DNA of 64,000 bases from Flavobacteriales bacterium (GTDB lineage: Bacteria > Bacteroidota > Bacteroidia > Flavobacteriales_F > PHOS-HE28), in the NCBI GenBank assembly GCA_016703005.1, contig JADJCX010000033.1, positions 297,767 through 361,766 on the forward strand, in the 5' to 3' direction. Shown here piece after piece: positions 42,737 to 55,138 of this stretch. Made by a program: the position numbers and the translations under genes. Every line of letters begins with the position of its first letter. Position 1 is the first letter of the stretch. The notes below the pieces were generated by a model, which did no database searches, was not told the DNA's origin, and saw only the letters and a list, made by a program, of their open reading frames with translations.

Positions 42737-43175
42737 GCTGCAGGCTTCAGGCCCCAAGCCACAGGCTTTTCTGAGTGCTATTCCCCGCTTCGCGCTGCCT
42801 GTGGTTGTCATGCGGCGGTTGTTCCGCTGAATTCAGGTCGGCGACCAGCCTGAGGCTTGGGGCCTGAAGCCTGCGGCCCTATGGTTTCAACACCGACATG
42901 AACCCGGATAGCATTTTCTGCTCCCGCTCCAAGGCTTGGATCAGTAATTCGACCTTGTCCTTTGGGCACCACGGGCGGCGTTGCGCCGAATCTCGCGTTC
43001 GTGCATACCTGTGGTTGTCGATCGATGCGGCGGTTGTTCAACGCGCTGAATTCAAGGAGTCGCAGTGACCAGCCTGAGGCCTGAAGCCTGTGGCCTGAGG
43101 CCATCCAATGCGCAGAGTTCAAGCAGTCGCAGTGACCAGCCTGTGGCCTGAGGCCTGTGGCTTGAAGCCTACTTT
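42737..43175. repeat. Intergenic cluster of direct and inverted GC-rich repeats (REP/MITE-like)
   Basis: About 3 copies of a ~70-90 bp unit (CCTGTGGTTGTC..ATGCGGCGGTTGTTC..GCTGAATTCA.G..GCGACCAGCCTGAGGC(C/T)TG..GCCTG). An inverted copy sits at 42737-42767 versus 42847-42877. Short GCCTG(A/T)GGCC sub-repeats. Confidence 0.6.
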
Positions 43176-43181
43176 TGGCCC

Positions 43182-45239
43182 ATGCACAACGTGATGGAAG
43201 ACCGCCAGCTACGGTTCGAGCGCGGCACCCTCAAGGATGACTTCCTGCTGAAGACCTACCGCGCGCTCGTGAAGCCGCGCATCATCGAGGAGAAGATGCT
43301 GAGCCTGCTGCGCCAAGGCAAGATCAGCAAGTGGTTCAGCGGCATCGGGCAGGAGGCGATCAGCGTAGGTGCCACGCTCGCGCTGCGCGACGACGAGTAC
43401 ATCCTGCCGATGCACCGCAACCTCGGTGTGTTCACCACGCGCAACATGCCGTTCAGCAAGTTGTTCGCGCAGTGGCAAGGCAAGGCCACGGGCTACAGCA
43501 AGGGCCGCGAGCGCAGCTTCCACTTCGGCAGCCAGGAGCACAAGGTGGTGGGCATGATCAGCCACCTCGGCCCGCAGATGGGCATCGCCGACGGCATCGC
43601 GCTGGCGCACAAACTGAAGAAGGAGAACCGCTGCACCATCGTCTTCACCGGCGATGGCGCCACCAGCGAAGGCGACTTCCACGAGAGCGTGAACGTGGCC
43701 GCCGTGTGGGACCTGCCCGTGCTCTTCATCATCGAGAACAACGGCTACGGACTCAGCACGCCCAGCAGCGAGCAGTTCCGCATGAAGAACTTCGTTGACA
43801 AGGCCATCGGCTACGGCATCGAAGCGCAGATGATCGCCGGCAACAACATCCTGGAGGTCTACACCAACCTCGCCCGTATTGCGGACAGCATCCGCGAACG
43901 CCCGCGACCTGTCCTGGTGGAGTGCATCACCTTCCGCATGCGCGGACATGAGGAAGCGAGCGGAACGAAGTACGTGCCCAAGGAGCTGTTCGAGGAATGG
44001 GGTAAGAAGGATCCCGTTGCCAACTACGAGAACTGGCTGCTGAAGCAAGGCATCCTCACCGAGCAATTGCGCGACAGCATCCGCGCCGAATTCAAGGACG
44101 AGATCGAAGACGGTTTGGCGGTGGCTTTTGAGGAACCCGAACCGGTGGCTGTGGAAGCCGATGAGGTGCGGGACGTTTATGCACCGTTGGCCACGAGCCA
44201 TGAGCCACGAGCCTTGAGCCAAGAGCTCGAAGCTCGCGGCTCGAAGCTCGGGGCCTCTTCAGAGAAAAGGTTCATCGACGCCATCAGCGACGGCCTTGCG
44301 CAAAGCATGGAGCGCCACCCGAACCTGGTGCTCATGGGGCAGGACATTGCGGAGTACGGCGGTGCGTTCAAGATCACCGAAGGGTTCGTGGAGCGCTTCG
44401 GCAAGGACCGCGTGCGCAACACGCCGCTATGCGAGAGCGCCATCCTCGGCGCGGGGCTCGGGCTCAGCATTAAGGGCATGAAGGCGATGGTGGAAATGCA
44501 GTTCGCCGATTTCGTGAGCGAGGGCATGACGCAGATCTGCAACAACATGGCGAAGGCCCACTGGCGCTGGGGACAGAACGCCGATGTGGTGGTGCGCATG
44601 CCGACCGGCGCGGGCGTGGGGGCGGGTCCCTTCCACAGCCAGAGCAACGAGATGTGGTTCGTGAAGACGCCCGGACTGAAGGTGGTTTACCCCAGCACGC
44701 CCTTCGATGCCAAGGGCCTGCTCATGGCCGCGTTCGACGACCCGAACCCGGTGATGTTCTTCGAGCACAAGAACCTGTACCGCAGCCTCACCGAAGCCAT
44801 CCCCGATGCGCCCTACGCCGTGGAGATCGGCAAGGCGCGCACGGTGCGCGAGGGGAATGCGATGAGCATCATCACCTACGGCATGGGTGTGCATTGGGCG
44901 CTCGAAGCGGTAGAGACCCTTCGCTCCGCTCAGGGTGACAATGCTGTGGATGCAGAGATCATCGATCTGCGCACGCTGGTGCCCATGGACACCGAAGCGA
45001 TCTACAACAGCGTGCGGAAGACCGGTCGCGTGCTGGTGCTGCACGAGGACACGCTGACCGCAGGCCTCGGCGGCGAGATCAGCGCCCTCATCAACGAGCA
45101 TTGCTTCCAACACCTCGACGCGCCCGTGATGCGCCTGGCCAGTTGGGATACGCCCGTGCCCTTCGCCATCCCGCTGGAGCAGGGTTTCCTGCCTAAGGCG
45201 AGGGTGGGAGAGGCGATGAGGAAGGTGATGGGGTATTGA
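43182..45239 (+). CDS. Fused 2-oxoacid (branched-chain/pyruvate) dehydrogenase E1 component, alpha and beta subunits
   Basis: TPP-binding alpha region (GDGATSEGDFHES) and a beta/transketolase-like C-half, joined by a repetitive linker (ATSHEPRALSQELEARGSKLGAS). Confidence 0.88.
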   Translation: MHNVMEDRQLRFERGTLKDDFLLKTYRALVKPRIIEEKMLSLLRQGKISKWFSGIGQEAISVGATLALRDDEYILPMHRNLGVFTTRNMPFSKLFAQWQGKATGYSKGRERSFHFGSQEHKVVGMISHLGPQMGIADGIALAHKLKKENRCTIVFTGDGATSEGDFHESVNVAAVWDLPVLFIIENNGYGLSTPSSEQFRMKNFVDKAIGYGIEAQMIAGNNILEVYTNLARIADSIRERPRPVLVECITFRMRGHEEASGTKYVPKELFEEWGKKDPVANYENWLLKQGILTEQLRDSIRAEFKDEIEDGLAVAFEEPEPVAVEADEVRDVYAPLATSHEPRALSQELEARGSKLGASSEKRFIDAISDGLAQSMERHPNLVLMGQDIAEYGGAFKITEGFVERFGKDRVRNTPLCESAILGAGLGLSIKGMKAMVEMQFADFVSEGMTQICNNMAKAHWRWGQNADVVVRMPTGAGVGAGPFHSQSNEMWFVKTPGLKVVYPSTPFDAKGLLMAAFDDPNPVMFFEHKNLYRSLTEAIPDAPYAVEIGKARTVREGNAMSIITYGMGVHWALEAVETLRSAQGDNAVDAEIIDLRTLVPMDTEAIYNSVRKTGRVLVLHEDTLTAGLGGEISALINEHCFQHLDAPVMRLASWDTPVPFAIPLEQGFLPKARVGEAMRKVMGY

Positions 45240-45304
45240 TGTTCCAAAGGCTTTCGAGGGGAACCAAGGACACTAACCCACACTAGGGTTGAAGAGCCAG
45301 ATGT

Positions 45305-45589
45305 TCAAACCCCAGCAACTTTCGAGGATAAAAGCTCTCGTACTCCCATCGAGGTAAGTTTCTTTTGCCGGTTTGAAACTGCTCCAAGTACTGTTTCTAG
45401 GTCTTTCGGTGAATCAATGCCCAGCAACACTTTGACCCTATCGAAGTACGCCTTCGACACCGATCGAGCAAACACTTCAAATGCTCCACCGTAGTGTCCG
45501 ATGAATATCAGTGTGTCGGGCCACCAGCCCGAATAAGCATCCTTCGTATGCATTTCACTCCTCATGAAGAGGATAAAATCGGCTTGCAT
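45305..45589 (-). CDS. Hypothetical protein, possibly a remnant, in a low-GC segment
   Basis: 94 aa with no recognisable domain. Lies in AT-richer DNA (~48% GC) immediately beside the IS element. Confidence 0.3.
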   Translation of the reverse strand: MQADFILFMRSEMHTKDAYSGWWPDTLIFIGHYGGAFEVFARSVSKAYFDRVKVLLGIDSPKDLETVLGAVSNRQKKLTSMGVRELLSSKVAGV

Positions 45590-45653
45590 CAGGAACTGGA
45601 ATTCTATTCCTGAACTCGCTGCCCGTGTAAGCTTCCCCTAAAGTCGGGCCAGC

Positions 45654-46850
45654 GATAACTGGAGGTCTCAGGAGCATGTGGGTTAGAGTTGGATGGGCAC
45701 TGGCGGCCGGTAACCGAGTGCTTTGTGAGGTCGAAGATGGTTGTAATCGTACATCCATTCGGTGGTGCGCAAGCGAACCTCATCGAGGGTACGGAAGACG
45801 TATGCGCTGAGCACATCACGGCGCAGGGTTCCGTTGAGCCGTTCGATGTAAGCGTTTTGCGTGGGCTTGCCCGGTTGGATGAAGGTGAGGGTGATCTTTT
45901 GGAGCTTGCACCAGTGATCGAGTTTGGCGCTGATGAACTCCGGTCCATTGTCCACGCGGATCATGGTCGGTAGCGGACGATGTTCCTTGATCTGTTCAAG
46001 GGCACGTATCACGCGCTGAGCAGGCAGTGAGGTGTCCACCTCGATGGCCAGTACCTCGCGGTTGTAGTCGTCCAGGATATTGAGCAGTCGGTACGTGCGA
46101 CCGTCCCAGAGGCTGTCGTGCATGAAGTCGATGCTCCACACCTGATCAGGGGCTTGTGGTTGGAACAACGCCTGCTTCACGCGGGCAGGCAGGCGCTTCT
46201 TGGCCCTGCGCCGGATGTTCAGGCCCATGGCCGTGTACACCCGGTACACGCGCTTGAAGTTCCAGCGTTGACCCGTCAAACGCATGCGGTGATGGCTCTG
46301 CCACACGCCGATGGCCGGATGCCGCTGGGTGAGTTCGCCCAAGGCTTGGATGATCGCCGTGTCATCGGGTGGGTGCTTGAGGTACTGCGCGGTACTGCGA
46401 GCAAGGCCCACACAACGGCAAGCCTGCCGCTGTGTAAGTCCGTGTTCATTGCTCATCGCCTGCACGATTTCGCGCTTCTCGTCAGGCGCCCCACTTCTTT
46501 TCCACCACCTGCTTCAATGCATCGTGCATCATGCTCAGCTCGGCATACATGCGTTTGAGGCGTCCGTTCTCCTCCTGCAGTTCCTTCATCTGCTTGAGTT
46601 GGCTGGCGTCCAGACCACCGTACTTGGCCTTCCACTGGTAGAACGTGGCGTTGCTGATGCCGTGCTCGCGACAGATGTCGGCGACCTTGGCTCCAGCGTC
46701 ATGCTGCTTGAGCATCGAGACGATCTGATGCTCGGTGAACTTGCTTTTCCTCATGGCTACTACTTGTGTTGAAAGTAGCCCCTGACCGGTCAACGGGATT
46801 TTTCCCCAGGCCTGATGGGCCGGGAAAAATCCCGTTGACCTCCACTATCA
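45654..46850 (-). mobile_element. IS3-family insertion sequence (about 1.2 kb). orfA runs 46482-46754 and orfB (DDE integrase core) 45683-46465.
   Basis: orfA has an HTH region (MRKSKFTEHQIVSMLKQHDAGAKVADICREHGISNATFYQWKAKYGG). orfB has the rve/DDE core (...DNGPEFIS...[12 protein letters not shown]...). Imperfect terminal IRs about GATA(A)nTGGAGGTC at both ends. orfB overlaps orfA by about 33 nt but in the +1 rather than the usual -1 frame. Confidence 0.8.
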
Positions 46851-46872
46851 CATGGCCGAAGATTGGGGAAGC

Positions 46873-47973
46873 TTACACCGATCCTTTGCATATCTGCCCG
46901 CATAGAAAGTCGCTTGGCCTGGAGTCTTTGATTTCGATGCCGAAGGACTGCATCCTTCGATAAATGGTTTCGAAACCCACCATCGAAGGTTTGCCGTATT
47001 CAGCATTCACAGGTATATAGAATGGCTTGGTGAGAACATCGGCGGCTTCGCTGAAACGCTCATGCTTTATAAGGACCGCCAAGGAGAAAAGAAACAACTC
47101 ATGAATGAGAAATCTGTAGTTGTCAAACTCCCAGTCCTGCCAAGAATTCAAATTGGGTGACTTGTCCATATACGGAATGATGTCTTCAAAGAACCGATGA
47201 AGGCGATTAATGATTGCCTCACTCGGGTGATACTGGGCGATAGCCACGAAGAGATGAAGCATCTCGTTTCGTTGCGGAAGAAAGTCTCCAATGCTCGCTA
47301 CTACTGCCTCACCGAATTCTCCAGCCGGGTTCACTAATCTGATTCGCTCAAGGTTCTTGGCAAACGTTGTGCAGTACTCATCAAAGGCACCTTCAGCGTA
47401 GCTTTTATGGTCCCTTAGACCTTCCAGGCACCTTTTGAACAATAGAGAGGTGCCCAATGATGCATGCTCGCCCTCGTTCAAGAACGTGGGCATGGTACCT
47501 ATTTCGGGCTTCACATAAAGGGGTTTGTCAAAAATCCATCGGAGCAGCCGTTCAAGGTTGTCCGAGTACCGGTCCAATTCACTGAGGTCGATGTAGATTC
47601 TGGCCTTGTAGTATGTAGGAAGAAAGGGTTTGTCATTTGCGTCTTTATGGCTCACAACAGCAACGAACTTGTTTTGGTCTTGTCTGTCGTAAACTTCCTT
47701 AGAGATGATTTGCGTTTCAGTTCCAACACCACCCGATCGACCGTCCGCCTTACTCGCGTATTTCTCATCGCAGATAATAACCACCTTCTTAATGTCTGGA
47801 TTGGTGACCATTTGCTCCATGAAGGCCACCGCATCATGCCCTTCCCTCAAATCCCATTTGTCCAGAATCACATCCACTCCAGCCGACCGCAATTGAGTTG
47901 CAAGATCAATGACCCATTGTTCGTGATCCGGGCTGGACCAGCTGTATGAGATGAAGAGTTTTGGGGCGGACAT
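46873..47973 (-). CDS. TIR-domain protein with an uncharacterised ~230-aa C-terminal domain
   Basis: N-terminal TIR-like block KLFISYSWSSPDHEQWVIDLATQLRSAGVDVILDKWDLREGHDAVAFMEQMVTNPDIKKVVIICDEKYASKA. Low-GC (~45%) coding sequence. Start trimmed to MSAPKLF. Confidence 0.6.
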   Translation of the reverse strand: MSAPKLFISYSWSSPDHEQWVIDLATQLRSAGVDVILDKWDLREGHDAVAFMEQMVTNPDIKKVVIICDEKYASKADGRSGGVGTETQIISKEVYDRQDQNKFVAVVSHKDANDKPFLPTYYKARIYIDLSELDRYSDNLERLLRWIFDKPLYVKPEIGTMPTFLNEGEHASLGTSLLFKRCLEGLRDHKSYAEGAFDEYCTTFAKNLERIRLVNPAGEFGEAVVASIGDFLPQRNEMLHLFVAIAQYHPSEAIINRLHRFFEDIIPYMDKSPNLNSWQDWEFDNYRFLIHELFLFSLAVLIKHERFSEAADVLTKPFYIPVNAEYGKPSMVGFETIYRRMQSFGIEIKDSRPSDFLCGQICKGSV

Positions 47974-48142
47974 CCGATTATGAGTATGAGGCAAAGATGG
48001 CTCCCACTTGTCGCGTGATGGGCTGACGCTCGCCTTCGACTCGCTTAATTGCAAGTCAGCATTGCAGCGATTGGCTACATTCGCATCATGCGAGCTATGA
48101 CGCGGCGAATATGGATATGTGGCTAAGCCACTATCTCATTAT

Positions 48143-48216
48143 GGCCCCGTAGCTCAGTCGGTCAGAGCATCTGCCTTATACGCAGCCGGTCGCAGGTTCA
48201 AGTCCTGCCGGGGCTA
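48143..48216 (+). tRNA. tRNA with anticodon UAU (Ile-AUA decoding) on an ileX-like (tRNA-Ile2) backbone
   Basis: Cloverleaf: acceptor GGCCCCG/CGGGGCT, D-arm GCTCAGTCGGTCAGAGC, anticodon stem-loop TCTGC-CTTATAC-GCAGC, T-arm GCAGGTTCAAGTCCTGC, discriminator A, no encoded CCA. Near-identical architecture to E. coli ileX except the anticodon is TAT instead of CAT. Confidence 0.75.
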
Positions 48217-48348
48217 CTGATATTCCATCTCACCTTCATCACATGCACCCGCTCGCGCATTGCAGACGCTCGCCTTCGGCGAGTGTCCGAGCGGTGTACC
48301 AGCATGTGGTAAAGATCGGATACAAGATGAACTCTGGATATTAGAGCC

Positions 48349-48585
48349 ATGAAGACTCAATGGGCATACTATGATTTTAGGACGGAGATTGTCACGGACA
48401 ACGTAGGTGGCTCCGTCGCCGTTCAATTGCATAGGACAGGCACATCGGGAGAAGAAGTGTTGGCAGCGGCGGTAACCTACTGGGACGCGGATGGTCAGTT
48501 CCAGGTTAGTGTTTATGTCAAGCAAGTGCCAGTGACCATTCTTGAAGTAGTCATTGCTGAGGCTCGGGCCGCTGTTCCAACCTAG
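48349..48585 (+). CDS. Hypothetical small protein
   Basis: 78-aa ORF with no recognisable domain. Confidence 0.25.
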   Translation: MKTQWAYYDFRTEIVTDNVGGSVAVQLHRTGTSGEEVLAAAVTYWDADGQFQVSVYVKQVPVTILEVVIAEARAAVPT

Positions 48586-48665
48586 ATGCCGGCTTGCGCC
48601 GTTCGGGTTACTGCGCACCGATCGCGTGAATCGCTGACGTCCCGACAAGTCCGGATGTCCTTCGG

Positions 48666-49058
48666 TCAAGGCCTGTGGCCCGCCTTACCGATCCCCGTCG
48701 GCTGTATCGCGCTGGTCTCCACCATCAACACCACGGTCTTCTTGGGTGCGCGCGGGCGGTGCATTACGCCCTTGGTGATGGTGACACCCTGTTGGGGGTT
48801 CAGTTCGATGGTGCGGTCCTCGAGGTCTATGAGCAGTTGGCCTTCAAGCACCAGGAAGAACTCATCGTCGTTGTCGTGCTTGTGCCAGTGGAACTCGCCC
48901 TCCAGCATGCCCAAGCGCACCACGCTGTCGTTCACCTGGCTCAGGGTGCGGTTGGCCCACTTCTCCTTGGTGGCAGCCACAACAGCGGGAATGTCGATCT
49001 TCTCGAGGTGTGCGAACTGCACACCGAGGTCAATGTCGTAGGTGGTCTTGGGTTCCAT
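48666..49058 (-). CDS. Cupin-domain protein
   Basis: 130 aa. The two-His motif region (GEFHWHKHDNDDEFFLVLEGQLLIDL) and a later H are typical of the cupin_2 fold. Confidence 0.65.
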   Translation of the reverse strand: MEPKTTYDIDLGVQFAHLEKIDIPAVVAATKEKWANRTLSQVNDSVVRLGMLEGEFHWHKHDNDDEFFLVLEGQLLIDLEDRTIELNPQQGVTITKGVMHRPRAPKKTVVLMVETSAIQPTGIGKAGHRP

Positions 49059-49195
49059 TGGGCTTGGGCGTCGATCAAATCTAGCTTGGCGCTGCGTCTA
49101 TAAGTAAGGAACGCGCGCGCGGCTTACGATGGAGAGGTACAAGGGTTTCACCTTTCATTCTCCTTGATCTGCTGGCCACGAGTAGGGATATTTCG

Positions 49196-49448
49196 GAAGC
49201 TGATAGAGACATGTTCAGCGCAGACATGGGCATGTTGAAGTTGAACAGAGACCTGTTGGCCACGAACAGGGACATGATCGCCGCTGAAAGAGACATGTCG
49301 GCGGCCGATAGAGACATGTTAGCCGCTGAAAGAGGCATGATAGCGGCTGACAGAGACATGTTAGCCGCTGAAAGAGGCATGTTAGCGGCCGACAGAGACA
49401 TGTTAGCCGCTGACAAGCATGTTGATCGCTGACATGTACATGTCAGCC
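49196..49448. repeat. Tandem array of about 11-12 21-bp repeats (alternating GCCGCTGAAAGAGGCATGTTA and GCGGCCGACAGAGACATGTTA) ending in a perfect 20-bp palindrome GCTGACATGTACATGTCAGC
   Basis: Direct reading of 49196-49448. The 21-bp period equals two helical turns. Every unit contains an ACATGT-like core. Both strands stay open in several frames, as expected for a period that is a multiple of 3. Confidence 0.85.
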
Positions 49449-49584: not shown

Positions 49585-50244
49585 GTGTTCCCTGCCACCC
49601 TAAATATCACTGTCTTCTGCGGCGCATTGCTGGTCGCTTGCGTCGTTGCTGCCCAGCCGCCGAAAGAGCCGGGGTCGTTCAGGCCACCCGACCTGGTGGA
49701 GATCGTGAAGCTGGATAAGACCATCAAGCTCGACATCCGCTACGCCACGAAGAACAATTTCCTGGGGCGACCGGTGTACAAACATGCACGGGCCTTTTTG
49801 CAGCGCCCGGCCGCCGAGGCACTGGTGCGCGTGCACCAAGCGCTGAAGGCGCAGGGCTTCGGGCTGCTGGTCTTCGATGGCTACCGGCCGTGGAGCGTTA
49901 CCAAGGTTTTTTGGGACAGCACACCCAACGACAAGAAGAGCTACGTGGCCGACCCCGCAGTAGGCTCGCGGCACAACCGCGGATGCGCGGTGGACCTCAC
50001 CTTGTTCGACCTCAAGACAGGTCGCGCTGTAACGATGCCCAGCGAATACGACGAGATGACGGAACGGTCGCATGCGGACCATTCCGGTGCAACGCCGGAG
50101 GCCACGCGCCTGCGCGATCTGCTCATCGCGGCCATGCAAGCGCAAGGCTTCACGGTCTTCGCCACCGAGTGGTGGCACTTCGACTACAAGGACTGGAAGG
50201 AGTATGCGATCCTGGATGTTCCGTTCAAGGAGATCGGGAAGTAG
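49585..50244 (+). CDS. ddpX: D-alanyl-D-alanine dipeptidase (M15 family, VanX/DdpX-like), secreted
   Basis: Signal peptide and M15D motifs (...SRHNRGCAVDLTLFD...EWWHFDY). Confidence 0.8.
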   Translation: MFPATLNITVFCGALLVACVVAAQPPKEPGSFRPPDLVEIVKLDKTIKLDIRYATKNNFLGRPVYKHARAFLQRPAAEALVRVHQALKAQGFGLLVFDGYRPWSVTKVFWDSTPNDKKSYVADPAVGSRHNRGCAVDLTLFDLKTGRAVTMPSEYDEMTERSHADHSGATPEATRLRDLLIAAMQAQGFTVFATEWWHFDYKDWKEYAILDVPFKEIGK

Positions 50245-50336: not shown

Positions 50337-51623
50337 ATGCGTGCACATACCCGTTCCTTCCTGCTATCCTGCGCTCTCGCATTCGCCCCGCTGGCACAGG
50401 CGCAGGACTTCTTCTGGGACTTCGAAGGAGCGAACGGCCTCGATGGATGGCACATGTATGATGGCAGTTCGATGCAGACGGGACCAGGTGCGGCCAGTGC
50501 GACCAGCGTGCGTTTGCAGAGCGGACCGCCCCTTAACAGCGGATCGTTCGATTCGGCCATGTTCTTCTACCATGTTGTGCCGTACGACCCTAACGTCTTT
50601 TACAACATTACAGTTGGGTGCATGACACTCGACCCCGATGTGTACCCGATGGTATACCTCGGTTGGCTCGATACGCTGACCCAGCCCGCATTCCTGAACG
50701 CCGCGAACACCAGCATGACCGTTTCGACGGGCCCCTCCAGCTGGGCCATCGCCGAATTGCTGGATGAGTATCCCATCACCGGAACGGGCGCGTACTGCAT
50801 CATCATTTCGGCTTCATCGTTGATCCCGGGCGAAGCCCTGTTCGACAACATTTCCGTTGAGATGATACCGCAGGGCTCGGCCATGCTCCGCGCGCCAAGG
50901 CTGTTCCTGGGCGGCAACTTCGATAGCGGCATCAACCGGATGGGCCACCATCTCAACGACCTGGGATTAGTGCCGGCCACGGAGCCATACACGGCCATGG
51001 GTTACCAGCAGATCGGCGGTGGTGGGGAGATGTGCACACCCTTTGTGATGGAACCGAGCTTCAACTTCAACGCCGTGGATTGGGTGCGCCTCGAATTGCG
51101 TTCGGCCTTGGACCCGACCGTGGTGGTGGCCACGCGGCAGCTCATGCTCACTTCACTCGGTCTTACGTGCGGCCCCAATGGGCAACTGAACCTGCACTTC
51201 GATCTGCCGGCCGGCAACTATTACGTGGCCGTGCGCCACCGGAACCATCTGGGTGCGATGACCGCCACGCCGGTGGCGCTGCCAAGTCCATTTCCATGGT
51301 GGGCGGTGGATTTCCGCTCGCCTTCGCTTGCCACATGGGGCAGCAATGCGCGCAAGGCGGTGGGGGCGAACATGGTGCTATGGGAAGGCGATGTCACAGG
51401 CGACCACTTGCTCAAGTATGTGGGTATGAACAACGACCGCGACCCCATTCTCGTGGCCATTGGTGCGTTGCCCATCGCTACCCTCACCGGTCAGTACCGC
51501 AAAGAGGATGTGACCATCGATGTCGTCGTGAAGTATGTCGGGGTGAACAACGACCGTGACCCCATCCTTGTGAATATCGGCGGTAATACGCCCAATGCCG
51601 TGCGCGTGGAGCAGGTGCCATAG
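50337..51623 (+). CDS. Secreted protein, paralog A of a novel family, with C-terminal dockerin-like Ca-binding repeats
   Basis: Signal peptide. Shares long blocks with 53834-55138 (FEGANGL.GW, EPYTAMGY.Q.GGGGE, VDWVR.ELRS..DPT..VATRQ, NYY.AVRHRNHLG.MTA.PV). Repeats of the form GD.TGD..LKYVG.NNDRDPILV.IG. Confidence 0.6.
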   Translation: MRAHTRSFLLSCALAFAPLAQAQDFFWDFEGANGLDGWHMYDGSSMQTGPGAASATSVRLQSGPPLNSGSFDSAMFFYHVVPYDPNVFYNITVGCMTLDPDVYPMVYLGWLDTLTQPAFLNAANTSMTVSTGPSSWAIAELLDEYPITGTGAYCIIISASSLIPGEALFDNISVEMIPQGSAMLRAPRLFLGGNFDSGINRMGHHLNDLGLVPATEPYTAMGYQQIGGGGEMCTPFVMEPSFNFNAVDWVRLELRSALDPTVVVATRQLMLTSLGLTCGPNGQLNLHFDLPAGNYYVAVRHRNHLGAMTATPVALPSPFPWWAVDFRSPSLATWGSNARKAVGANMVLWEGDVTGDHLLKYVGMNNDRDPILVAIGALPIATLTGQYRKEDVTIDVVVKYVGVNNDRDPILVNIGGNTPNAVRVEQVP

Positions 51624-51717
51624 GGGGTTACGAACTGGCGCGGGCCTTTCTAAGCGTCCATCGCAGAGTCGCTTGTGCGCGAGTCCTACGCATGAGGCCG
51701 CAGGGGCTCGCAGGCCG

Positions 51718-51820
51718 AGGGCTTCACCGTCTTCGCCACCGAGTGGTGGCACTTCGACCACAAGGACGGGAAGGAGTATGCGATCTTCGATGTGGAGTTC
51801 GGCAGGATCAAGGGTCAGTA
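51718..51820 (+). pseudogene. Fragment (~100 bp) of the ddpX 3' end
   Basis: ...GFTVFATEWWHFDHKDGKEYAIFDVEFGRIKGQ* is about 80% identical in DNA to 50140-50244. Confidence 0.7.
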
Positions 51821-51830
51821 GTTCCCCCGC

Positions 51831-53387
51831 CTATTCCTTCACTATGCGCAGGCAGGTCAAACCTTCATTGGAAGTCACCTGCAGGACGTAGGGTCCTGAA
51901 GGGAGAATACTCAGGTCAACAAGGGAGCCGCCAACGCGAAAGTGCCCAGTTTGCACTGTCGCACCCAAGGTGTTGATGACCACATAGACTGCGTTACTGC
52001 CTATGTCGCCGGTGATCCTGAAGACGCCGTTGCTCGGGTTCGGTGTGGCAGTGAGTCCCGGTGCTGGCAGTGATGGGTCCACCGCTGTGCTGAAATCCTC
52101 CTCACCGAGTTCAACAAGCCATACATCGCGCACGCCTATGAAGTCCTGGACGTCGCCATCATTCGATTGTGCATGCCCGGCCATCATGAAGTGGCCGTTG
52201 GGAAGTGCGACGATCGCCGAGCCGCCGTCAAAGTCGGTGCCGCCCATTGTTTTCTGCCACAGGAGATCCCCGAACGGGTCCAGACGTACAACCCAAGCAT
52301 CGGACCAGCCTTGGTTGCTGGTCACGTCGCCATCGGCAGAGCGTGTGTTACCGGTGAAAATGAACCCACCGTCATAGAGCTGGTCCATGTCGATCGGGGT
52401 GTCGAACAGAGAGCCACCGATACAATGCTGCCACTGCAGGTTGCCCAGTGAGTCCAGCTTCACGATCCAAGCGTCCTCATCGCCGTGGAGGCCGCTCACG
52501 TCGCCATCATTGGACGAGGTTCTCGCGGCGATCACATAGCCACCATCCGAGGTGAGCGCCAGATCGAACGGGTTTTCGGACCACGTGCCGCCAAAGGACT
52601 GCTCCCAGAGGATCGCACCGACGCTGTCCACCTTCACCAACCACACATCGTTGGCGCCGAGGTTCTGGGAAACGTCGCCATCGGAGGACAAAGAACTGGC
52701 CGCGAAGACATAGCCGCCGTCCATGGTCCTGGTGATGGACCAACCCACTTCGGCCAAGCTGCCGCCGTAGCACCGCTGCCATTCCAACCCGCCAGTGCTG
52801 TCGAGCTTCACCACCCATGCGTCGTCCGCACCGTGATTGCCGCTCACGTCGCCGTCGTTCGAGGTGGTGCGCGCTATCAGTATGCAGCCACCGTCCGGCG
52901 TGCCTTCAATGCACGCCACGGTCTCGTTGCTCGATCCACCGAGGTCGATGTTCCACTGTACGTTCCCACCGCTATCGAGCTTTACCACCCCGATGTCCGA
53001 GTAAAGCACCGGATACGGCGTGATGTACCCGGTAAGGAAGTAACCACCGTCAGCGGTTGGTGCGAGACCATGGGCATCATCCCAACTAACACCGCCCAGC
53101 GTTTGCTGCCATAGCAGCGTTCCGGTGCTATCGATCTTGAATACCCACATGTCGTGATCGCCGTTCTGCCCCGAAATGTCGCCATCGACCGAGGTTGTGA
53201 ACCCGGAGACAACGAAGCCGTTGTCAGCCGTGCGCAGGAGGTTGCGCCCCATCTCGTCATGCGATCCTCCATAGGTCTCCTGCCATACAATGGGCGGTGC
53301 TATCTGGCCGATGATGGTGCCGCGCAACACAAGAACCGCAACAGGGATGATCGTCCAACGAAAGAAGCGGGCGACTGAGCTTTGCAT
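51831..53387 (-). CDS. Secreted beta-propeller-repeat protein with a T9SS type A C-terminal sorting domain
   Basis: About 8 repeats of about 50 aa (DGGY...G.T.S.DGDVSGNHG.DDAWVVKLDS.G.L.WQ...GG) and a Por-secretion tail (...GPYVLQVTSNEGLTCLRIVKE). Confidence 0.7.
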   Translation of the reverse strand: MQSSVARFFRWTIIPVAVLVLRGTIIGQIAPPIVWQETYGGSHDEMGRNLLRTADNGFVVSGFTTSVDGDISGQNGDHDMWVFKIDSTGTLLWQQTLGGVSWDDAHGLAPTADGGYFLTGYITPYPVLYSDIGVVKLDSGGNVQWNIDLGGSSNETVACIEGTPDGGCILIARTTSNDGDVSGNHGADDAWVVKLDSTGGLEWQRCYGGSLAEVGWSITRTMDGGYVFAASSLSSDGDVSQNLGANDVWLVKVDSVGAILWEQSFGGTWSENPFDLALTSDGGYVIAARTSSNDGDVSGLHGDEDAWIVKLDSLGNLQWQHCIGGSLFDTPIDMDQLYDGGFIFTGNTRSADGDVTSNQGWSDAWVVRLDPFGDLLWQKTMGGTDFDGGSAIVALPNGHFMMAGHAQSNDGDVQDFIGVRDVWLVELGEEDFSTAVDPSLPAPGLTATPNPSNGVFRITGDIGSNAVYVVINTLGATVQTGHFRVGGSLVDLSILPSGPYVLQVTSNEGLTCLRIVKE

Positions 53388-53439
53388 GATGCAATGTAAA
53401 CCTCCTTCCATAGGCCCAAAGCGCTCGAGGCGGAACAGT

Positions 53440-53722
53440 TGTCCGCGCGGCACAACCGCGGCTGCGCGGTGGATCTCACACTCTTCGACCTCAAGACCGG
53501 TCAGGCCGTGACGATGCCAGCGAACACGATGAGATGAACGAACGGTCCTACCCGACCTATTCAGGTGCTGCTCCGGAAGCCACGCGCATGCGCGATCTGC
53601 TGATCGCGGCGATGCAGGCGGAGGGCTTCACGGTCTTCGCCACCGAGTGGTGGCACTTCGACTATAAGGACTGGAAGGAGTATGCGATCTTGGATCTACC
53701 GTTCAAGGAGATCGGGAAGTAG
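53440..53722 (+). pseudogene. Fragment (~280 bp) of the ddpX 3' half, frameshifted
   Basis: Aligns to ddpX from ...HNRGCAVDLTLFDLKTG to the stop. A 1-nt deletion lies near 53518. The last 62 codons remain open as ORF 53534-53722. Confidence 0.75.
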
Positions 53723-53833: not shown

Positions 53834-55138
53834 ATGCTATCCCAGTTGGTTCGTTGTGCCTCGGTAGGCATTTTTGTCATCGTCGGGAACACGGCTGCCT
53901 CGCAGACCTACAGCTTCAATTTCGAGGGTGCGAACGGCCTTTCGGGTTGGGTGCAGAACGACGGCCAACCCATTGGCACGGGGGCAGGTGCAAGCGGTAG
54001 CACGGCGTTGTCCATTTCCGTGGACCAGGTCAACTGGGACCGTCGTGTTTACCATCCCATTCCGTTCGACCCGACCAAGGTCTATCGGTACTCGGCCTGG
54101 ACGAAAGTGGGGCAACTCTCGACTACCACATCGGTAAGGCTCGCGTGGGTCGACTTCAGCACCGGACAGCGCATCTACACCGATACCTACTATCTGAACG
54201 GAAATTATGGCGCATGGCGGCCAGGGGGTATCCCGCCTCATCTCATCCCGACGGCCGACTTCTCGTCGAACCCGAACGCACAGTTCTGCATCGTGCTCGA
54301 AGCATTCGATGGTCTTACCGGCATCGCATGGTTCGATGATGTGGTGGTGACGATGAGCGACGTTTCCTCCACTGCGTTCATCAGTGCGCTTGTGATGTTG
54401 GGCGGTACGTACACCAACGGCTACATGCCTGCCAACCTGCGCTTGCAGAACCTGCTGCCTGTGCTGGAACCGTACACCGCGTTGGGCCATGTGCAAGTGG
54501 GTGGTGGCGGTGGCGAAACGGCGCCGGAAGCATGGTGGAACTTCAACAACCTGGACGGGCCGGTGGATTGGGTGCGGGTTGAATTGCGCTCTCCGATCGA
54601 CCCGACCATCATCGTGGCCACGCGGCAAGGGCTGGTGAGCAGCATCGGCTCGATCACCGAGGTGGACGGCGGCAGTGCCCTTGGTTTCAGTGTTGCACCG
54701 GGCAATTATTACCTGGCGGTGCGGCACCGCAACCACCTCGGGTGCATGACCGCCTCGCCGGTTTTCGTGCAAGGTGCCATCACGGTTCCGTGGTCGGCTT
54801 ATGGTTTCGTGGACTTCACTGCGGCCGCTACCCCTGTTTGGGGGACCGATGCGCGGAAGCACGGTGACAACACTTACAACTACAAGGTGCTATGGCCCGG
54901 TGACACCAATGGCGATGGTGTGGTGAAGTACACCGGTGCCAACAATGACCGCGATCCCATTCTGCAAGCGATCGGCGGCGTCCTGCCGACCAATACGTTG
55001 CCCAGCGTTTACAACATACATGACGTGGGCATGGACGGCACGGTGAAATACACCGGGTCCTTCAACGACCGCGATCCGATCCTGCAGACCATCGGAGGTG
55101 TTATTCCCACGTTGACGCGCGCGGCGCAGTTGCCTTGA
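53834..55138 (+). CDS. Secreted protein, paralog C of the novel family, with dockerin-like repeats
   Basis: Signal peptide. Conserved blocks shared with 50337-51623. Repeats DTNGDGVVKYTGANNDRDPILQAIGG and GMDGTVKYTGSFNDRDPILQTIGG. Confidence 0.6.
   Translation: MLSQLVRCASVGIFVIVGNTAASQTYSFNFEGANGLSGWVQNDGQPIGTGAGASGSTALSISVDQVNWDRRVYHPIPFDPTKVYRYSAWTKVGQLSTTTSVRLAWVDFSTGQRIYTDTYYLNGNYGAWRPGGIPPHLIPTADFSSNPNAQFCIVLEAFDGLTGIAWFDDVVVTMSDVSSTAFISALVMLGGTYTNGYMPANLRLQNLLPVLEPYTALGHVQVGGGGGETAPEAWWNFNNLDGPVDWVRVELRSPIDPTIIVATRQGLVSSIGSITEVDGGSALGFSVAPGNYYLAVRHRNHLGCMTASPVFVQGAITVPWSAYGFVDFTAAATPVWGTDARKHGDNTYNYKVLWPGDTNGDGVVKYTGANNDRDPILQAIGGVLPTNTLPSVYNIHDVGMDGTVKYTGSFNDRDPILQTIGGVIPTLTRAAQLP

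Follow-up and report, generated by a model that had tools for sequence, protein, structure and literature searches.

The bSEFIR family of antiphage genes is represented by a broken copy in a 64-kb stretch of DNA from an uncultured wastewater Flavobacteriales bacterium (the window, by which the whole of this stretch is meant). The gene lies in a low-GC segment between two convergent native genes, one for the E1 component of a 2-oxo-acid dehydrogenase (E1) and one for a cupin-domain protein, and it is split by an insertion sequence (IS) of the IS3 family. The segment is atypical in composition and absent from related genomes, and it is very probably an acquired bSEFIR cassette that has since become a pseudogene. 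A preliminary description of the window had taken the same region for an island integrated at a tRNA gene and carrying a candidate for a new antiphage system based on a TIR domain, a reading that now appears very unlikely.

Identity and disruption of the bSEFIR gene

The N-terminal piece of the gene matches the bSEFIR model of PADLOC (PDLC03957) with E = 6.5e-102 and 340 bits. Counted from the true ATG, residues 5-136 score 66.4 bits against Pfam SEFIR and 65.7 bits against TIR_2, a small margin. The SEFIR domain of Bacillus cereus (PDB 5Y8E) is matched over residues 4-156 with E = 1.3e-34, and the motifs FISYSW, ILD(K/R)W and GGVGTET are shared with the structures 5Y8E and 5Y8F, including the Asp of ILD(K/R)W. 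Only the SEFIR domain is covered by these structures; the disruption of the window gene concerns the C-terminal two thirds, on which they give no information. The profile and structure matches place the gene in the published bSEFIR family.

bSEFIR has been tested experimentally as a single-gene antiphage system, and its members were selected by an N-terminal SEFIR domain that scores above TIR (Millman et al. 2022, bioRxiv 10.1101/2022.05.11.491447). In the protein of Bacillus sp. NIO-1130 the substitution D40A abolishes defence, this Asp being assigned to the SEFIR-SEFIR interaction (bioRxiv 10.1101/2022.05.11.491447). The family depletes NAD+ by means of the N-terminal SEFIR domain (bioRxiv 10.1101/2024.02.11.579819).

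A search of 5.8 billion proteins rendered 3739 homologues, the best of which are 478 amino acids long and 58-66% identical to the window gene. Of the best 120 of the 3739, 117 measure 470-486 amino acids, mostly exactly 478. The region behind the SEFIR domain makes up about two thirds of the protein and is conserved among the homologues. The window gene shares with the family both the N-terminal SEFIR domain and the long conserved C-terminal region. In the contexts of the closest homologues that were examined, the bSEFIR gene stands alone among Fic, PIN, HNH and HTH genes, that is, in surroundings of defence and toxin-antitoxin genes. The closest homologues with a name come from Alcaligenes, Burkholderia, Aeromonas and one deltaproteobacterial genome and are thus proteobacterial, whereas the window copy is found in a high-GC Flavobacteriales host. 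No protein in the collection is closer than 66% identity to the window gene, and hence this allele is not on record in intact form.

The window copy differs from other members of the family in having no single full-length open reading frame (ORF). The IS has inserted within an Arg codon, the counterpart of residue 366 in the 478-residue homologues, and the last 112 codons are thereby severed from the rest. The 94-residue ORF on the far side of the IS, which the preliminary description regarded as an orphan, is the C-terminal part of the same gene, matching the PADLOC bSEFIR model at profile positions 326-369 (E = 2.4e-4) and aligning with residues 366-455 of the homologue P0001 in tblastn.

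The tblastn alignment with P0001 places the remainder of the gene in further frames. Residues 1-343 of P0001 are found at 47973..46945 and residues 344-362 at 46945..46889 in a different frame; behind the IS, residues 366-455 are at 45625..45356 and residues 442-475 at 45396..45295 in yet another frame. Pieces of bSEFIR thus stand in four frames around the IS. The frame changes are a -1 shift near 46945, a -1 shift near 46889 and a +1 shift at 45384 (an extra C on the plus strand), at codons ~343, ~362 and ~446 respectively. When the IS and one CCG are excised, the coding sequence joins across the insertion point as ...AKDR/AASSGIEF... (the slash marks the point). A single ORF restored by removing the IS in silico was considered and rejected, as the three frame changes remain. 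The 366-residue ORF consists of 343 authentic residues and an out-of-frame tail of 23 residues, and it is more than 100 residues shorter than the full-length homologues.

Decay at the level of substitutions is slight. Among 153 highly conserved columns, 80 of which are in the SEFIR domain, the window protein deviates at 7, and in the SEFIR domain it keeps 79 of the 80. Divergent but intact homologues deviate at 1-8 of the conserved columns.

Composition and borders of the segment

The two blocks of about 0.48 GC that flank the IS are the strongest outlier in the 64 kb, both by GC and by tetranucleotides. Measured over 400 nt, GC is 0.60-0.65 within E1, drops to 0.47-0.52 at 45.2-45.8 kb and is 0.47-0.50 at 46.8-48.0 kb. 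Over 1-kb intervals the mean for the whole window is 0.589 (standard deviation (sd) 0.024), and the minimum of 0.476, in the interval starting at 47001, is about 4.7 sd below it. The tetranucleotide distance from the window average is maximal at 46751-48250 (z = 5.2), while the next unrelated region reaches z = 1.9. GC at third codon positions (GC3) is 0.56 in the bSEFIR gene versus 0.80-0.86 in E1, the cupin gene (0.83 by itself) and the gene for an M15 D-Ala-D-Ala dipeptidase farther downstream. The preliminary description was right in calling the segment atypical, as the sliding GC and the tetranucleotide checks both place the strongest outlier here. Its picture of a fall from 62% in the flanks to 45-50% holds for the two blocks but not for the region as a whole: the dip is not uniform, the IS between the blocks having a host-like GC of 0.58 (orfB GC3 0.74), and the window averages 0.59, with only the immediate flanks near 0.62 (E1 0.627).

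For comparison, one genome per species was scanned, which gave 80 loci with an orthologous E1 gene (66-89% identity) from uncultured Flavobacteriales, Cytophagales and other Bacteroidota. Nucleotide homology to these relatives ends at 45237-45241, at the stop codon of E1 (45239), and the segment starts directly after it. From 48694 on, within the 3' end of the cupin gene, homology is found again, with 81-82% nucleotide identity to L014 and L017, two relatives in which the cupin gene is likewise the gene downstream of E1. Between 45241 and 48693 no nucleotide or protein homology was found in the 80 loci, and bSEFIR, the IS and the small ORF orf78 are absent from all of them. The relatives' cupin protein ends in ...KPTGD, whereas that of the window ends in ...QPTG-IGKAGHRP with nine unrelated codons; the last codon and the stop codon were thus replaced at the junction, which gave a C-terminal extension of nine amino acids. 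Because the relatives' ending differs from that of the window from there on, the right junction is placed at the cupin stop codon. Upstream of E1, the intergenic region 42810-43138 has several exact 14-nt direct repeats at distances of 53-224 nt from one another. Between the cupin gene and the M15 gene, at 49163-49434, there are at least ten imperfect copies of a 21-nt unit (AGAGACATGTTAGCCGCTGA-like), with repetitive ORFs on both strands.

No promoter motif of the Bacteroidetes type TAnnTTTG was found in 47900-48420, and a scan for sigma-70-like promoters gave weak matches only. This absence, the composition and the lack of the segment in the 80 E1 loci all point to a foreign origin, which is highly probable in conjunction with the reading as a bSEFIR cassette turned pseudogene. 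Horizontal acquisition as proposed in the preliminary description is thereby upheld, as no relative carries the segment at any GC, and the features that it listed (the 94-residue ORF, the IS3-family element, the 366-residue ORF from the ATG at 47973 and the tRNA) are all present.

The role given to the tRNA gene did not hold. The tRNA adjoins low-GC DNA, a non-random 14-nt direct repeat brackets it and the nearby gene has a TIR-like domain, all of which would suit an island integrated at a tRNA gene. However, among the 36 of the 80 E1 loci that were scanned for tRNA genes within 10 kb of E1, none has any tRNA gene in that range, and an unrelated tRNA-His call is located at the far end of L020. 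E1 and the tRNA are therefore adjacent in none of these relatives, which is the arrangement that the synteny comparison suggested in the preliminary description was to look for, and the tRNA is not an ancestral target. Since homology to the relatives resumes only at 48694, past the tRNA, the tRNA lies inside the segment and not at its edge as had been described. No integrase or recombinase domain was found in any ORF of the segment or in the large ORFs of 33-62 kb; the latter are housekeeping genes or encode secreted proteins whose type IX secretion tails score slightly under the curated cutoff of 27 bits for Pfam Por_Secre_tail.

The direct repeat GACGCTCGCCTTCG is real, though its second copy lies 7 nt from where the preliminary description had put it. 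The window has 12 exact 14-mer pairs no more than 400 nt apart, nearly all of them in obvious repeat structures, versus 0.26 expected from Markov-2 simulations, and because of this difference the repeat is unlikely to be due to chance. It is located outside the tRNA, contains no copy of the tRNA 3' end and spans 240 bp rather than the island. Its right copy makes up the 5' arm of a hairpin that follows the tRNA at a distance of 45 nt. GCATTGCAG is found at 48059 and 48257. As a part of a dispersed element GACGCTCGCCTTCG was rejected, there being no other copy in the window at up to three mismatches.

The tRNA itself is unusual. A tRNA-Ile with the anticodon UAU is rare in bacteria and has been recorded in Mycoplasma mobile and in a small number of lineages without tilS, the usual decoder of AUA being a CAU tRNA that TilS modifies to lysidine (PMC3575796). 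The window tRNA resembles that of M. mobile in having UAU instead of CAU, but differs in that it is found within a horizontally acquired segment of a Bacteroidota genome. The same tRNA is present in the independent metagenome contig L121. In JGI metagenomes the closest genes for a tRNA-Ile(UAU) share 84% identity with it and lie on low-GC contigs. A phage origin received no exact-pattern match in viral contigs, and the best GenBank phage tRNAs are about 80-83% identical with other anticodons. The acceptor and T arms resemble those of Escherichia coli tRNA-Ile2. AUA occurs 0-2 times per gene in the native genes of the window, and the tRNA is either a decoder of AUA for the host or accessory cargo of the segment.

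The composition of orf78 is coding-like and foreign-like, and its only database match is the identical sequence in L121. It has no match in Pfam, PADLOC or NCBIfam and no similarity to the small ORFs beside bSEFIR homologues, and it may not be a gene.

Table 1. Location of features in the window and of cassettes behind E1 in related loci (the latter in the coordinates of each locus)
Feature	Location	Strand	Description
E1, native left flank	43182..45239	+	fused alpha/beta 2-oxo-acid dehydrogenase E1 component, 685 aa; Pfam E1_dh, Transket_pyr, Transketolase_C
Island, redefined	45240..48692		~3.45 kb (~2.2 kb after subtraction of the IS), right end approximate; flanked by the 3' ends of convergent E1 and cupin genes
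bSEFIR C-terminal fragment	45283..45625	-	codons ~366-478; stop TAG 45283-45285; contains the 94-aa ORF 45305-45589
Target-site duplication CCG	45623-45625 and 46878-46880		3 bp, read from the flanks
IS3-family IS	45626..46877	-	1252 bp; ends TGTAAGCTTCCCC...GGGGAAGCTTACA; orfA 46482-46754, orfB 45683-46465
bSEFIR N-terminal fragment	46878..47973	-	ATG at 47973, codons 1-365; SEFIR domain residues ~4-156
Direct repeat GACGCTCGCCTTCG	48025-48038 and 48265-48278	+	14 nt exact (16/17); unlikely chance
tRNA-Ile, anticodon UAU	48143..48217	+	ARAGORN; Rfam tRNA 70.5 bits
orf78	48349..48585	+	ORFan, 78 aa; GC1/2/3 = 0.61/0.42/0.53
Cupin-domain gene, native right flank	48666..49058	-	Pfam Cupin_2; convergent with E1
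Cassette after E1 stop, L001	12032-13595
Cassette after E1 stop, L004	6959-7311
Cassette after E1 stop, L012	12032-14099
Cassette after E1 stop, L014	12032-12792
Cassette after E1 stop, L018	12026-12857
Cassette after E1 stop, L023	12137-12880
Cassette after E1 stop, L044	12026-12937
Cassette after E1 stop, L080	8110-10164

The insertion sequence and the site behind E1

The element within the bSEFIR gene has the features of the IS3 family: an OrfA with a helix-turn-helix (Pfam HTH_Tnp_1), an OrfB of the DDE type (Pfam rve/rve_3), TG...CA ends, a 3-bp target duplication, a length of 1.25 kb and many identical copies. Its transposase scores 229.9 bits against NCBIfam NF033516, above the curated cutoff of 160 bits. 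The termini are imperfect inverted repeats of 33 nt with 76% complementarity, TGTAAGCTTCCCC... being present at both ends. Copies of 99.7-100% identity were found in 12 metagenome contigs, mostly from wastewater, in which the similarity to the window stops exactly at the ends of the IS. Because these near-identical copies have about eight different flanks, the IS is multicopy and has been active recently.

In the IS3 family orfB is usually in the -1 frame relative to orfA, and a slippery site allows programmed -1 frameshifting. The element in the window is different in that orfB is in the +1 frame. The -1 frame closes after about 15 codons (46456-46510, minus strand), and although an A-AAA-G motif is present in the IS, it leads into this closed frame. 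The +1 arrangement is not a local mutation, because the copies elsewhere are 99.7-100% identical. Between the orfA-proximal end of the IS and the start of orfA, at 46788-46840, there is a perfect 19-bp inverted repeat with a 15-nt loop, which gives a spurious sub-threshold Rfam match to Plastid-psbJ-5. Several other insertion sites of the IS (flanks of L122-L133) have a GC of 0.41-0.53, below the 0.59 of the host; either the IS prefers accessory DNA of lower GC or its insertions are tolerated only there.

Two contigs from different metagenome samples have further junctions with this gene. L128 (positions 1-338; SRR31968660) joins the flank that ends at 45625 to the orfA-proximal end of the IS, opposite to the window, and L133 (positions 1253-1382; SRR14769838) joins the orfB-proximal end to 47387, inside the coding sequence of the SEFIR gene. 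The two junctions suggest, across two samples, a variant with one inverted IS between 45625 and 47387 and with 46878-47386 lost. It could have arisen if the IS had inserted a second time, in inverted orientation, at 47387 and the DNA between the IS termini, which are identical over 13 nt, had then been deleted. Whatever the route, these junctions indicate that the same gene has been struck by the IS more than once.

The place directly behind the E1 stop codon is occupied by other small genes in the relatives. A HicA-like toxin with a partner is found there in L001, L004, L012, L014 and L018, and in L012 also a gene for a Lit-like peptidase (Peptidase_U49). L080 has a HaeII-type restriction-modification pair of 35% GC in a genome of 45% GC, and L044 and L023 have unannotated ORFs. 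These cassettes are small and have no integrase (Table 1). As in defence hotspots, the same interval holds different small cargo in each genome, here a toxin-antitoxin pair, a Lit-like peptidase, a restriction-modification system or bSEFIR, without an integrase. To judge from these loci, the bSEFIR segment sits where defence and toxin-antitoxin cargo has settled repeatedly.

The final 20-148 bp of E1 recur in direct orientation behind the cargo in eight or nine of the 78 relatives scanned for such a repeat (nine copies in all). The displaced copies are 74-100% identical to the end of the resident gene. Usually it is the displaced copy that keeps the ending ...GY before the stop codon, and the working E1 has different last 15-20 nt; the E1 of the window itself ends in ...GY. 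A duplicated gene end of this kind is what would result if a molecule carrying its own mimic of the gene end had entered by a single crossover. The 'minimal mobile elements' of Neisseria are variable cassette sites between conserved genes. The cargo of the relatives differs from such sites by the duplicated E1 end, which single-crossover or site-specific integration would leave, and the window is without the duplication.

A similar arrangement is seen farther downstream in the window. The M15 D-Ala-D-Ala dipeptidase gene has two further copies of its 3' end downstream, with 86-89% identity (50039-50244, 51710-51800 and 53446-53722), and the copies precede or follow two paralogous genes of 428 and 434 amino acids (50337-51623 and 53834-55138), like the E1 ends in the relatives. 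The longer copy carries a frameshift of its own near 53522. The same region has a gene of 540 amino acids (51831-53453, minus strand) for a secreted protein with a type IX secretion tail (Por_Secre_tail, 26.0 bits), within which 52278-52874 consists of four copies of a 174-nt repeat that are also repeats at the protein level.

It is conceivable, but on present evidence rather improbable, that the site behind the E1 stop codon is the target of an undescribed, integrase-less movement of small defence and toxin-antitoxin cassettes in Flavobacteriales and Cytophagales, and that the M15 gene perhaps is a target likewise. Each cassette would then carry a mimic of the last 20-148 bp of its target, and a single crossover would rebuild the gene end and leave the original end as a downstream repeat. 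The segment with bSEFIR and the tRNA would be one more cargo of this kind, whose distal repeat has since been lost.

Probable fate of the cassette

Several observations weigh against an acquired cassette whose gene is now dead. The extra base at 45384 is absent from L128, which covers 45328-45625. L121, which covers 47780-48702 (923 bp) with 99.7% identity, differs from the window by two indels (48311 and 48617) in addition to one substitution (48689), all three outside ORFs, and these reflect either divergence between strains or consensus errors that remained in the assembly. Some or all of the frameshifts in the gene may accordingly be consensus errors or very recent strain differences. The loss of function is what we infer from the lesions, and a truncated SEFIR-domain protein could still be made. 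No displaced E1 3' end was found in the 64-kb window by blastn (word size 7) or tblastn. Finally, no independent contig spans the junction of E1 and the segment, and the junction with the cupin gene is covered by only 9 nt of L121, and because of this thin coverage the chromosomal linkage rests mainly on this one assembly. Exact look-ups found neither the E1 protein nor the 366-residue and 94-residue ORFs on record in public assemblies, and the left junction and the first two frameshifts are therefore without confirmation from an independent contig.

The frameshift observations would suit a variant of the pseudogene reading in which the IS is the only lesion. The frame changes would then be assembly or polishing errors or private mutations, the inactivation would be very recent, and the 5' part might have residual or deregulated NADase activity. 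Apart from the differences to L128 and L121, this is favoured by the position of all three indels in homopolymer runs of 2-3 nt and by the well-preserved SEFIR domain, with one deviation in its conserved columns. On the other hand, about 5 kb of conserved flanking genes (E1, a WG-repeat protein, M15 and a desaturase) align to the relatives without frameshifts, and the assembly thus has no general tendency to indels. Where it departs from other contigs by an indel, the sequence is always non-coding or already disrupted, as would be expected of real neutral changes. The conserved region behind the SEFIR domain is so large a part of the protein that a truncated product is unlikely to be normally regulated. 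The variant is the less likely one. The insertion of the IS is in either case a secure lesion, which splits the gene even without the frameshifts; the three frameshifts are probably real. To go by its lesions, the gene is most likely functionless in the present genome.

The thin coverage of the junctions also bears on whether the segment could be a chimeric join in a metagenome-assembled contig. All relatives and all contigs that match the window are derived from metagenomes, and together with the uncovered left junction and the unrecorded E1 protein this would permit a false join. But both junctions are located exactly at the stop codons of convergent genes that are neighbours in L014 and L017 as well, and an IS of host-like GC with a clean target duplication is found inside the segment. 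L121 reaches the cupin junction, and the relatives take up foreign cassettes at exactly the same site. An artefact of assembly is scarcely credible.

For the acquired bSEFIR cassette we infer the following order of events, as well as the NADase mechanism and its loss. A foreign cassette of low GC would have entered between the convergent 3' ends of E1 and the cupin gene, a spot that varies within the clade and is loaded with defence genes. The tRNA-Ile(UAU) and orf78 would have been passengers in the inserted segment and not the target of the integration. When intact, the gene of about 478 codons would, going by the literature on the family, have acted as a single-protein abortive infection system. 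The conserved C-terminal two thirds of the protein would sense phage infection, upon which the SEFIR domain would self-associate and hydrolyse NAD+ to ADP-ribose and nicotinamide, so that the infection is aborted. The resident multicopy IS3-family element would then have inserted at codon 366 with duplication of CCG.

The suggestion that a small TIR island of this kind is where a new antiphage system might be found was correct in that the gene is of a defence type, but the system is the known bSEFIR of PADLOC and it has been inactivated. Nothing in the segment is a candidate for a new defence system; it is an ordinary relic of a known family. As a lead to new defence systems it is of little value, since the family has already been described and tested and this copy is dead. 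Annotation pipelines would miscall the locus as a 'TIR-domain protein' and a 'hypothetical protein', and recognising a single pseudogene avoids the counting of a functional or novel system. More unusual than the island itself, though not part of what the preliminary description claimed, are the rare tRNA-Ile(UAU) that the island carries and the duplicated 3' gene ends beside the cassettes of the relatives. The locus is of some modest use as an illustration of how defence genes turn over, with acquisition at a recurrent hotspot behind a conserved metabolic gene, knock-out by a resident multicopy IS and further IS junctions within the same gene in other samples.

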